Assembly: GCA_964016885.1 (NCBI GenBank) | Contig: OZ024742.1 | Location: 321,780,001-321,844,000 of the forward strand | Direction: 5' to 3' | Length of the DNA stretch: 64,000 nt | Origin: Eledone cirrhosa | Lineage: Eukaryota | Part shown: positions 2,982-14,771 of the stretch, piece after piece | Layout: every line of letters begins with the position of its first letter | How positions within the stretch are numbered: position 1 is the first letter of the stretch | Position numbers and translations under genes: made by a program | The notes under the pieces: generated by a model | The model's input: the letters and a program-made list of their open reading frames with translations, nothing else | What the model was told of the DNA's origin: nothing | The model's database searches: none

Positions 2982-3205
2982 CTCTATCAGTCGTGTGTCA
3001 CTTCGCGGAGAAGTTTCCGTTAATTTATGTAAGAAAAAAACGTGAGTTTTTAGTTAAATTTTATATCATTGTGTAACTTGACCACCCGTCTGGACCTTCA
3101 GCTGGTGGGTCAACTCATTTTCGCCCCTTCAGGGGCGGAATATCCATTTAAAAAATTTTTCTCCATCGAATCTTGGAAAAAATATTGTAAAATTTTGATT
3201 ACGTT

Positions 3206-5118
3206 ATGAACGCTACGTCCAACGATAATGGTGGTGGAGAGGCGGTAAGACTACAAAGCTCGCGGTCAACAACGTCTTCTTCACTAGATACTATAGAGAT
3301 GGAAAGACAAAATGAAAATAAAAAAACGAATTCACATCCAAACAACACAAATGACACTAAACAGCTCAATGACAACAAAAATAACAGCAAAACCAATAAT
3401 GATGATAAAAGCAACAATGATAACAACAACAAAGAAAAAAATAAAGACAACGCCAATAACACCAGCATCAAAGACAACAACAACACCAAGGAAAATACGG
3501 ATGATACCAACATCGGTGACAACAAGAATAACAAGAATAACAACAATAATGACAACACCACCAATACGGATTCCACAAAGAAACCAAAAATCTCCTTTGC
3601 GGAGAAAGTTCAAAAGAAAGAACAATTGATATATCTCGACATAACAAATGCTGAACACCTTTTAAAGGACGCTAAGAGATATGTCACCTTCGAAAAAATG
3701 GTGCTTTCAGCATCAATTCTCCGGTAGAAATTCGCAAGGAAACTGCCCTCAAAACGATAGTTTTTAGGACAGTTTCCAATTCTACCCGAAAACCAGTCCA
3801 ATTGTCACAGAAAGATATTGAACTGGTTTTCAAAGATTCAATGAATGATATTGCATTCATTCAAAGAAGCAAACTTTTTGGGAGTATTTCGGTACTCATG
3901 AAGGATCAATTGACGGCCCAAAATTACTCTGTGTCGTCAATTGTATCCAACCTGTACACCTTTTTCCCTACATACATGGGAAAAAGGACACAAAAGATCA
4001 GAATCACAAGTGTCACACCAAAGGTGAACATATGGGGGATACTGTGCGGCTTCATCAATTTTGATGAAGACAGAATACTGTCCATAGGAAAGTCCCCCAG
4101 AGATGTATTCAATGGGACTAGCATTGAAGTTCTGGTGCAAATGAGCCCAGAGTGAATAGCTATGATCCCACAGCGTGTACTCCTGGACGGACTCACCTAC
4201 ATAAACCTTTCGGTTGAGGGTAGGCGGCCTTCATGTTACCATTGCTTTAGCAGGGGTCACCTGAGGGCTTCCTGTCCTAAACTAATGAACCAAAAAAAGG
4301 CTCTTCTGCCGACACCCATCAAAACAACACAACCACCAACACCACCACAACAACAACAACACCAACACACAAAAATAACCACAACAAACACAGTCCCACC
4401 CAACCCCACTCCACCTAAAACCACTGCAAAATCACATACAGACACAACAGCTCCCCAAGACATACCCCTCCCCAATTACACAGACGATACAACAGATGAG
4501 GCTATCTCGCCATCACCCAGTGAAGACGAGGGAGAACCCCATCGCTCGAAAAGAAAGAAAAGACATCACAAAAGCAAAAAACCAGCAAACACTACCACAA
4601 ACATACAACCACCAACACAAACAACAAAAATATCACAAACAAAACCCCCACCTCCTGAAAACAAAATACCTACAACAAAACGAAAGCACACACAAGAACT
4701 ACAGACAAAAACAAACACAACACAAGAAAATTACACTTACACTTACATAAACACTGAAAACAAAACACTAATGGAGACCATCACGAACGACCCTTCGGTT
4801 TTCACCGAAGGGAAAACTTTCGCCCACTCTATAAAAAATAGCAAAAAACTGAACCTAAAACTGATTAGGGTCCCTATACAAACTTATAGGTCCCTAAAAG
4901 AAACATTTGAGAAGGATGTGGGGAATTCCTGCGTGAAACCACTCAACCGCGTCCTTCTCAAATGCCTCCCCACCCCAGACACCCCCATCCCACCAGACCC
5001 CACCCCACCAAACATCTGCGTCCCCACCCCGCCGGAAACCACCACCCATCCAGACAACCCCTCCAACACCCCCATGGAAATCGTGCGGCCTGGTCCCCAG
5101 GAGGCGAAGGGTGAGTGA
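3206..5118 (+). pseudogene. Tx1 LINE ORF1 (gag-like nucleic-acid-binding protein), disrupted
   Basis: ORF pieces 3206-3727, 3802-4155 and 4162-5118 are joined by one frameshift (about 3705) and one TGA (4153-4155). Zinc knuckle CYHCFSRGHLRASC preceded by VEGRRP; Asn-rich N-terminus and Pro/Thr-rich C-terminus. Confidence 0.85.
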
Positions 5119-5151
5119 TCTCTTTTCCTCTTTTAACTTTTCAGCACCAAC

Positions 5152-12341: not shown

Positions 12342-12429
<88 letters not shown>

Positions 12430-12440
12430 TTCTATCTATC

Positions 12441-14771
12441 TGCCGCTGCGGGAAACGCAAATCACCCGGTTTAGATGGTCTACCCTATGAGTTTTACATA
12501 GGCATGCCAGACTTGTTCTCTGGCGTCCTCGAAGCGGTCTACTGCAACTGGCAGCAGAACGGGAGGATTCCCAGTTCTGTAGGCAGGGGCGTAGTCACGC
12601 TGATCAGGGAAGATGAGAACAAGGGGGATGAGATAAGCAATTTCAGGCCCATGACTCTGCTCAACACAGAGTTAAAGATTTTGGGCAAGGTGTTAGCAGC
12701 AAGGCTGGCACTTGTCGTTGAGAACCTGGTAGGGGAAGCCCAAACGTGTGCAATCCCGACCAGGTCCATACACGACAACCTCCACCTCATGCGATACATC
12801 ATAGAGAGGGTAGGGTGTAAACCTGGCTTTTATTGGGGCTCTGATCAATTTAGATCAGTCTAAGGCATTTGATAGGGTCGACCATCAATACTTGGAAGCA
12901 GTTCTCAAGGCGGCCGGCTTCGGTCCCGTCTTCAGAAGCTGGATCGCTGCCATGCACACCAGCATCTGCTCGGCAGTCAAGGTGAATGGCTACATATCAG
13001 AGCCATTCCAAATCATGCGTTCCATCCGTCAGGGATGCCTTCTCTCTTCCATTCTGTATGTACTGACTCTCGAGCCGTTACTGCGGAAATTGGAGCTGTT
13101 GCAGGGTATCCCGATCGAACCAGGACTGCGGAAAGCAGCGTCGGCCTATGCCAACGACATAACCGTAATGGTGTCGAAAACCTCGGAAATCAGGTTAATC
13201 GGCAACCTATTACAGGAATACGAAACGTTGACAGGAGCAAGACTAAACCCAAACAAGTCTGTCGGTTTGCAACTCGGCACATGGAGAGGCAAACCTATGC
13301 CTTCCGCCAGTGTCGTTGGACGCTGGACGGAAGGACCGGTGAAATTGCTCGGGGTCTGGTTCGGTCCAGACCTCCAGGTGGACAAGAACTGGAACGAGGT
13401 CACGGCGAAGGTGTTTGCACTCACCCAGAAGTGGGCTGAGTGCAAACTCTCCTTGAAAGGTCGAGCGGAGGTGGCGAATACTTACATAGCGTCCGTCATC
13501 TACTACCGCTTGACAGTCGTGCCTTGCCCCCGCGAATACCTTACCAAAATGGAACACCTACTCTTCAAGTTCCTCTGGAAGAAACAGGCTCCATTGGTGA
13601 GGAGATCCGCCTGCTGTCAACACCCTTCTAACGGAGGGCTGGGCATGCCGTGGCTGATGATGCGCAAACATGCGCTGAGGCTACGCCATCTCCAGATATT
13701 CCTGACCGGTGAACCGGTGTGGCTCTCGTTTGTGAGACAAGCTCTTCCACAACTCGTCTCACTAACAGAGCTGCAGTCCTGGGTCAAGCGAAGACCGAAA
13801 ATGGGTGCCTGGCACCTCGAGTGCCTACAGGCGCTCACGGCCCTCTACCAAGCGGAAACAGCAATCAGCGGAGACTCTACTTCGTCATTCTATAGGGGAT
13901 TAGTGGAGGATAAGTGCGACGACGTTCTCGGGAAAACTCTAGGCATCGAGGAGGACGAACTGACCAGTCTGTTCGGGAGGACTTTCCGTCCAGGGCCTAT
14001 GGATAACTTCCAGAGGTCTCTGGCCTGGCAGTGCTACCGAGGAGCTCTACCAGTTCGAGACAAAATCTACAGGCACGGACGCCCTGGCAGAGATTCTGCC
14101 AAAAGGACCTGTCCAAGATGCGAGCAGGACATTGAAACCGTTCTGCACGCAATTGTTTAGTGCCCAGGGGTGACCGACCTGTGGAATTATGTCGAACAGC
14201 TGCTGTCACGTGTGGGACGCATCCAGTTGTCAGCCGAGTCCATCGTGAGGATCACCCCGCCGTCTTCATTTAAGAACGAAGGAGAGGCGGTTTTCCTCTG
14301 TCTGGTGGCTATGGCGAAAGAGGTAATATGGTGGACGAGGTTAAAACGACTGAGGGCAAACACCTTTCTCCCCGGACAACAACTTATCCCCTTCTTTAAG
14401 TATCACTTCAGAAGGAAGGTGAGAATGGAGAGAGAGGTGCTACACCCCAGTAAATTCGCTGAAAGGTGAATGTGCCAAAAATGGCCCGAGTGAATGGGCC
14501 GTCTCTGTATATAAACCTGTAGGTTGAGGAAGATAAACAGAGGGAAGACAGGAACACCTACAAAACGTGTTCCTGGTGTTGAGGGTTGTTCTATCCACGG
14601 GATGTAAAACAACCCTGCAGTAACGTTCCCCCTACTGGGGATTTCAATTGTTATTTTATTATATATAGTTTATTGTTATTTATTAATGTTAAAGTTATTT
14701 TTATGTAAAACTCCCGCCGTCACGTCTTGTAATGTCCCATTTTTGTACGCCCCTGTGGCAAATAAAGAAAG
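12441..14771 (+). mobile_element. 5'-truncated Tx1 LINE, copy D (more divergent subfamily, disrupted)
   Basis: KSPGLDGLP, FRPMTLLN, QGCLLS, AYAND, CPRC..ETVLHA; stops and a frameshift; ends AATAAAGAAAGAT + (CTAT)/(CT)n. Confidence 0.92.

Follow-up and report, generated by a model that had tools for sequence, protein, structure and literature searches.

We analyzed a 64,000-nucleotide stretch of the genome of the octopod Eledone cirrhosa (contig OZ024742.1, positions 321,780,001 to 321,844,000; hereafter the window), an extremely microsatellite-rich piece of animal DNA in which four copies of a long interspersed nuclear element (LINE), designated A to D, lie head-to-tail on the same strand between positions 2989 and 14772. 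Our main finding is that these copies are best read as four target-primed insertions by an octopod Tx1-type lineage of the L1 group that prefers (TATC)n on the sense strand, an interpretation to which we assign a probability of about 0.7. The first-pass annotation of this DNA had proposed a strand-specific, (GATA)n-targeting lineage with several subfamilies; this remains the best reading, given a candidate target site duplication (TSD), short 5' microhomology to the repeat, a paralogous site that is empty and the order of the ages of the copies, with the restriction that it concerns a single locus.

The mapping of the stack bore out the four co-oriented copies with different 5' truncations that had been described. 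Copy A (2989 to 8827, on the + strand like all features of the stack) is apparently full length. Its 5' untranslated region (UTR; 2989 to 3205) is followed by a broken first open reading frame (ORF1; 3206 to 5118), with a frameshift near 3690 to 3727, a stop at 4153 to 4155 and one CCHC knuckle at approximately 4231 to 4281, and then by ORF2 (5152 to 8587), which has frameshifts near 5345 and 7015 and in which Pfam profiles recognize an apurinic/apyrimidinic-type (APE) endonuclease, a reverse transcriptase (RT) and zf-RVT. The 3' UTR (8588 to 8827) contains three hairpins, H1 (8614 to 8638), H2 (8647 to 8682) and H3 (approximately 8698 to 8709), and an AATAAA at 8816 to 8821; poly(A) is absent. 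The three other copies have lost their 5' parts: copy B (approximately 8865 to 10809) starts within the RT, at the equivalent of A position 6910, and has an open frame from 8867 to 10543; copy C (approximately 10869 to 12258) starts at the equivalent of A 7139 and carries a stop (11214 to 11216), a 3-nt deletion near 11630 to 11645 and an internal deletion of 285 nt at approximately 11916; copy D (approximately 12442 to 14772), truncated 5' of the RT at the equivalent of about A 6500, has a frameshift at approximately 12830, a stop at 14158 to 14160, a 4-nt deletion at approximately 14470 and a change of the first Asp of the YADD motif to Asn (13153). This combination, three 5'-truncated copies out of four and a 3' end common to all, is the footprint that target-primed reverse transcription (TPRT) leaves. 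The copies also share insertions (A 7855 and approximately 8140 to 8160, and equivalents): one of 4 residues, located ahead of the C-terminal zinc motif, is common to A-D and missing from close relatives, and a further one, of a single codon, is shared by A, B and C. A longer open frame, from 8771 to 10543, runs from the A 3' UTR through the (CTAT)n array, translated as LSIY repeats, into the RT of B; it is probably incidental.

The copies are bounded by five arrays: (TATC)n with TCAA variants 5' of A (2887 to 2988), before which no LINE 3' end is present; an uninterrupted (TATC)10 that separates A from B (8828 to 8867); (TATC)n between B and C (10810 to 10870); a mixed spacer between C and D (12259 to 12441), consisting of a TATC run, (CT)n and a second TATC run that adjoins the 5' end of D; and, on the 3' side of D (14773 to 14907), an array in which TATC and (CT)n are mixed. 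TATC units of the + strand adjoin all eight junctions, in agreement with the earlier description of every junction as (CTAT)n, sometimes mixed with (CT)n. Seven of the eight AGAT-class arrays of at least 16 bp in the window are located at LINE junctions. Elsewhere in the 64 kb, outside 2989 to 14800, a tblastn search with 12 diverse ORF2 proteins detected no APE-type LINE; no such LINE therefore resides in the AT (2350 bp), ACT (2346 bp), ACC (1539 bp) and AC (1012 bp) arrays, and the earlier claim that no junction lies in the abundant arrays nearby holds. Junction arrays represent 529 of 52,508 host bases (approximately 1%), so that the naive chance of three later landings on the same strand is approximately 1e-7; this figure is post hoc, and the insertions themselves have probably lengthened the arrays.

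At their 3' ends, the four copies all read AATAAA(A)GAAA, two variable bases and TATCT, without poly(A), and all enter the array in the same register. The pattern AATAAA(N0-2)GAAANNTATCT has four matches in the window, one per copy, and none in 100 shuffles. The 3' junctions are nevertheless undecided between a target and a tail, because either model yields a fixed register. On the 5' side, no element precedes the array upstream of A, and the TATC run adjoining D is separated from the run that follows C by approximately 100 nt of CCAT/(CT)n; the 5' TATC of A and D is therefore not the tail of an upstream copy. Copy D is moreover enclosed by a candidate TSD, made of 21 nt at 12421 to 12441, interrupted at position 10, and of a 3' counterpart at 14773 to 14793 that is identical at 20 of the 21 positions (both on the + strand). 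The TATC repeat is interrupted at the same position in both, and this is the sole such pair among the 306 pairs formed by 27 in-phase 21-mer windows. Microhomology to TATC was found at the 5' ends of B (at least 3 nt, ATC; P 0.011) and C (2 nt; P 0.051), the null being made of 10,609 position-by-phase cases.

The host DNA provides an empty paralogous site. Host unit 1 (2355 to 2643, + strand), preceded by an (ATG)n array, is composed of a block U1 (2355 to 2431), a CT/TA/CTAT tract (2432 to 2562) and a block D1 (2559 to 2643), and the occupied site is flanked by the corresponding blocks U2 upstream (2755 to 2838) and D2 downstream (14916 to 15001), both on the + strand. U1 and U2 are identical at 56 of 76 positions, and D1 and D2 at 61 of 83; each score was reached by none of 1000 dinucleotide shuffles, and cross controls were not significant. 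These flanking host blocks belong to an old tandem duplication, approximately 74% identical and far older than the LINE copies. As the empty paralog holds its CT/TA/CTAT tract between the two blocks, a pyrimidine-rich repeat was at the site before the LINEs. The duplication as a whole is a degenerate one of two units, each ordered (ATG)n-block-CT tract-block (2149 to 2654 versus 2655 to 2886 plus 14908 to 15001), and its downstream blocks D1 and D2 each encode a TINGIF-containing peptide. A reading of the host blocks as leucine-rich repeat exons was weighed by eye and dropped.

The element itself, judged from its domain order and from the similarity of its RT and APE to L1 rather than to R2 or the R1 clade, is an APE-type LINE of the L1 group. 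In A ORF2, Pfam identifies Exo_endo_phos and RVT_1, and zf-RVT slightly below the cut-off; the APE has its catalytic motifs. When 186 residues of the APE were modeled from an alignment (pLDDT 92), the best structural matches of the model were L1 endonucleases (L1-EN, E 1.8e-10), the R1-clade TRAS1-EN occupying rank 31 in the same fold search. Copy B scored 204 bits against a turtle protein, 145 against a fish protein, 71 against human L1 ORF2p and 31 to 41 against R2, the turtle and fish proteins not being labeled Tx1 by their source. The nearest named protein is from Argonauta hians (61%), with other near ones from Octopus sinensis and Sepia pharaonis, in keeping with an octopod host. Some database labels of the proteins retrieved seem to be mistaken: an ORF2 fragment of 62% identity (P0089/P0354) is filed under Herbaspirillum sp., and an O. 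sinensis RT fragment (P0432) is named RxLR-effector-like protein.

A scan of genome contigs returned 19 stretches, three of which encode a relative, in two overlapping loci of one contig (L001, 1 to 8523; L002, 1 to 8513); nothing in the plasmid and phage collections matched. These loci contain at least three head-to-tail units of approximately 6.55 kb that are approximately 99% identical, and the relative shares 42% amino acid identity with the window LINE. The contig is filed in a bacterial assembly and is probably eukaryotic carry-over. ORF1s with RRM-like domains and a CCHC knuckle are typical of the Tx1 clade. The knuckle of A ORF1 matches Pfam zf-CCHC at E 0.013 and the ORF1 of L001 at E 3e-8; no Pfam match to RRM or ZCCHC3 was found in the window ORF1, and the ORF1 of the relative resembles ZCCHC3-type clusters (0.91 in Atlas). 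The lineage behaves as a Tx1 element does, and its membership in Tx1 is likely from the knuckle-bearing ORF1, from the APE-RT-zf organization of ORF2 and from a similarity to turtle and fish proteins greater than to human L1. In a tree of 80 rows (two of 82 were left out as short matches), A to D form a clade (support of 100 in the Shimodaira-Hasegawa-like approximate likelihood ratio test, SH-aLRT) nested in a clade of eight rows that includes Argonauta (99), the sister of which is a 20-row group with Sepia and L001; the backbone of this tree is poorly supported, its outgroup is non-monophyletic, and it gives no placement within Tx1. Single-sequence folding of the APE of the relative reached a pLDDT of only 37, and the APE hairpin loop, 8 to 15 residues long among relatives, carried no target signal.

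The copies are 78 to 93% identical in ORF2 and 58 to 78% in the 3' UTR. Contrary to the first-pass annotation, in which the 3' UTRs were held to be clearly different, they are homologous and have the three hairpins in common. Pairwise ratios of nonsynonymous to synonymous substitution rates (dN/dS) range from 0.14 to 0.33 over approximately 340 shared codons (339 to 340 in the alignments, codons near the 3-nt deletion of C being excluded), and the copies therefore diverged as active lineages. The private changes of C are neutral (6 synonymous and 18 nonsynonymous, ratio 0.93), corresponding to approximately 2.4% decay; those of its closest relative, A, are not (8 synonymous and 7 nonsynonymous, ratio 0.27), which argues that A and C represent a single lineage at two points in time. 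The four elements, previously called independent, are on these comparisons four separate insertions from only three subfamilies, which evolved under purifying selection: A and C form one lineage, and B and D are each separate. At constrained sites, defined as those invariant in at least four of seven outgroup proteins, changes number 3 of 236 in A, 6 of 251 in B, 8 of 165 in C and 11 of 246 in D, and the pooled comparison of A and B with C and D is significant (p=0.02). Younger copies appear to lie 5' of older ones, and the purest 3' arrays belong to the youngest copies.

Among the shared 3' UTR hairpins, H1 has an 8-bp stem and a free 9-nt loop; its pairing holds in all 32 of 32 cells, and two of the pairs are compensatory. 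Folding energies of the 3' UTRs relative to shuffles (z -0.9, -2.1, -0.9 and -2.9) are clearly low in two of the four copies only. A 30-column stretch of the 3' UTR around TGTCCCCTTCTTTTGT is present even in L001 (window 12206 to 12234, L001 2666 to 2695), kept across 42% protein identity, and a 5' UTR motif at 3062 to 3109 has a 52-column match in the 5' region of L001 (3396 to 3448), found by local alignment without a shuffle control. These motifs are candidate promoter (5' UTR) and RT-recognition (3' UTR) elements. The putative 5' start of L001 is TATCAG, as in A, and TATCT follows its last AATAAA.

If the four copies are TPRT insertions into (TATC)n, the following mechanism can be proposed. 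The APE, by analogy with the general TPRT model, would nick the (GATA)n strand. Transcripts are usually cleaved 10 to 30 nt downstream of AATAAA; this signal is only 6 to 7 nt before the array here, so that the RNA must run into (UAUC)n. Once read through, the (UAUC)n of the transcript would anneal to the nicked strand and prime reverse transcription there, which would account for both the lack of poly(A) and the constancy of the register, while the 3' UTR hairpins would be the probable recognition signal of the RT. The cDNA would then be joined to the top strand through 2 to 4 nt of microhomology, leaving a TSD of approximately 20 nt. Because each insertion leaves an intact target on both sides, later subfamilies could stack in the same array. 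Endonuclease-led targeting of LINEs, with a role for a beta-hairpin (PMC1919474), and pairing of RNA with target at LINE 3' ends (PMC6007223) have both been described (here and below, the literature is cited from excerpts of the papers).

A number of observations weigh against a preference for (TATC)n. All the target evidence comes from one locus. The sole relative with DNA flanks, L001/L002, forms near-identical tandem copies with no TATC repeat, other microsatellite or Rfam match at its junction; the link with TATC is therefore not clade-wide, and tandem arrays may arise by another route in this group. The TSD test of D was post hoc, the pair having first been spotted by eye, and TSDs are uninformative for A and B, which are bordered by near-pure repeat, and reach at most 9 to 13 nt for C. 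Microhomology could be scored in two copies only (B and C, not A and D). The tract of the empty paralog is mostly CT, with only approximately 2.5 CTAT units, so that a long pre-existing TATC run is not demonstrated, and (CT)n runs represent 164 of the 521 junction-array bases (31%). The eighth AGAT-class array, a pure (GATA)8 on the opposite strand (17681 to 17712), is empty, as is a (CTAT)3 at 27666. Age tests on single pairs of copies were not significant (p 0.055 to 1.0). As to the hairpins, their covariation is marginal against the control (26 of 500 shuffles), and an 8-bp hairpin appears in 38 to 84 of 300 shuffles per UTR. Separately, we searched for read-through peptides of the LSIY type, a sign of (CTAT)n 5' junctions: 3 of 466 homologues had one, all from turtle and within an internal RT motif, a null result from a weak test.

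Three other explanations compete with a (TATC)n target. The target could be broader, namely pyrimidine-rich, TC-containing repeats, Kibi-like (TC)n included, with TATC being merely the flavor of this site or an added tail. The (CT)n share of the junction arrays, the mostly CT tract of the empty paralog and the TC-richness of all known Tx1 microsatellite targets (TC, TTC, TTCC, TTTC) point in that direction; yet none of the eight junctions falls in a (CT)n run, the candidate TSD of D is built of TATC units, and no such LINE occupies the CT/AG arrays at 24678, 29544 and 38086, which leaves this idea a small chance of being right. We give less credence still to TATC as an element-encoded 3' tail of the RTE-like kind, with near-random insertion and a stack that grew as a local hot spot from the tails of earlier copies. 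RTE LINEs frequently carry microsatellite tails (PMC6007223), and a tail would suit the shared register of the 3' ends without poly(A) and the pure 3' arrays of the youngest copies. It leaves unexplained the 5' TATC of A and D, the candidate TSD of D and the position of younger copies upstream of older ones, and repeated landing in tails would be a target preference in itself.

The remaining explanation is that the stack did not result from separate insertions at all. The relative with 42% identity does make head-to-tail arrays that are approximately 99% identical, and microhomology can mark deletions as well as insertions. The copies in the window are, however, 7 to 22% apart, with a dN/dS far below 1, as expected if they diverged while active; C has decayed neutrally and A has not, which implies different ages; and all truncation points differ. 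Tandem duplication, template jumping by the RT in one event and assembly error are hence unlikely origins of the stack, and to the whole group of scenarios, including tandem amplification and deletion of one copy, we attach only the slightest weight.

How does a (TATC)n target compare with known systems? Tx1 elements target (TC)n, (TTC)n, (TTCC)n, (TTTC)n, U2 and transposons (PMC4494074), and LINEs directed to microsatellites are known for ACAY, AC, TC, TTC and TAA (PMC3812793) as well as (TG)n (PMC4640811); a family is called target-specific when the target is found in more than 20% of its flanks across the genome (PMC4494074). Kibi, in (TC)n, and Koshi, in (TTC)n, are teleost Tx1 elements that likewise combine an APE with a pyrimidine-rich microsatellite (Kojima and Fujiwara 2004, as cited in PMC4494074 and PMC3812793); the present case differs from them in its TATC unit, in its octopod host and in the stacking of several subfamilies within a single array. 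The known Tx1 targets listed in the first-pass annotation left out the crocodilian (TTCC)n and (TTTC)n, which are targeted by group 2 (Tx1-1_Crp, Tx1-2_AMi and others), where a tetranucleotide preference extends across related families (PMC4494074). As crocodilian Tx1 already targets such units, a tetranucleotide target is less surprising, although the units are all-pyrimidine there whereas TATC contains an A, and the hosts are vertebrates rather than a mollusc. None of the eight junctions is a Kibi-type insertion into (TC)n, and with flanks of TATC the copies do not have the (TTC)n, (TTCC)n or (TTTC)n target of Koshi and crocodilian group 2. Keno is a Tx1 element inserted in U2; the U2 site reads GTAGTA/TCTGTTC in Utopia alignments, and Keno is stated to have the same 3' flank (PMC4640811). 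This site has the TATCT core of our 3' junctions. This five-base resemblance is a lead only. Insertion into U2, into 5S or into tRNA arrays, the last two being the targets of Mutsu and Dewa, was not observed, since the window yielded nothing with Rfam and no tRNA with ARAGORN. Waldo (ACAY)n and Mino (AC)n of the R1 clade, Dong (TAA)n and Togen (TG)n are also microsatellite-targeted, Waldo to a tetranucleotide (PMC3812793, PMC4640811), but belong to other clades, and the APE of the window LINE resembles L1-EN in structure more than it does the R1-clade TRAS1-EN.

In Octopus vulgaris, 80 L1-Tx1 families have been described, 13 of them recently active, and Tx1-type LINEs occupy approximately 56 Mb of the octopus genome (PMC13282606); the excerpts of this paper contain no target-site analysis of the cephalopod families, and those of PMC5753468, PMC3124438 and PMC8869645 add nothing further on targets. 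The window lineage is probably of the same class as the unclassified cephalopod L1-Tx1 families and may be among them. Microsatellite targets are often recorded in Repbase; no (TATC)n- or (GATA)n-targeted LINE was found in the open-licence literature, a scope to which Repbase entries do not belong.

The rest of the window contains other repeats. A Penelope-like element (30926 to 33967) has a weak RT match (31604 to 32662, - strand), a GIY-YIG domain (32986 to 33573, + strand) and 832-nt inverted terminal repeats that are 98.7% identical; its left end adjoins a (TA)n array. Minisatellites are located at 57223 to 57997 (period of approximately 91 bp), 58770 to 59003 (approximately 58 bp) and 59832 to 60281 (approximately 90 bp), and an interstitial, telomere-like (TAACCC)4.5 at 23312 to 23338. 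Dispersed repeats resembling short interspersed nuclear elements or miniature inverted-repeat transposable elements (SINE/MITE-like) lie at 28109 to 28305, 30485 to 30692, 36129 to 36315, 48876 to 49060 and 53679 to 53869, and an inverted pair of the same type (28429 to 28741 and 48100 to 48412) is 99% identical over 313 nt. The region from 60881 to 63952 was rejected as a gene: the apparent Tyr/Cys ORF of 1023 codons on its minus strand is mimicked by a trinucleotide array of 3 kb.

Taken together, the stack is real and has good support at this locus, and (TATC)n can probably be added, from an octopod, to the microsatellites that Tx1-type LINEs target; this enlarges a familiar theme and does not introduce a new mechanism. 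A bolder proposal, which we make tentatively and regard as possible but doubtful, is that of an octopod-wide Tx1-type lineage strict for (TATC)n, the first reported to have such a target and, among molluscs, the first Tx1 to be specific for a microsatellite, whose specificity would be the joint product of the APE and of (UAUC)n pairing, whose insertions, each restoring and lengthening the target, would build and feed GATA microsatellites, and whose sister lineage, of the L001 type, would have a different junction. The manner in which APE endonucleases recognize microsatellites has been described as poorly understood (PMC3812793). A natural comparison to weigh the APE hairpin against the 3' end of the RNA would come from a repeat unit that is new, from the divergence of the three subfamilies and from a sister lineage in which the unit is absent. 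If the TATCT core held in common with the U2 site of Keno is real, target switching within Tx1 would be a small step. The finding also bears on the biology of octopus genomes and on the search for site-directed retrotransposons.

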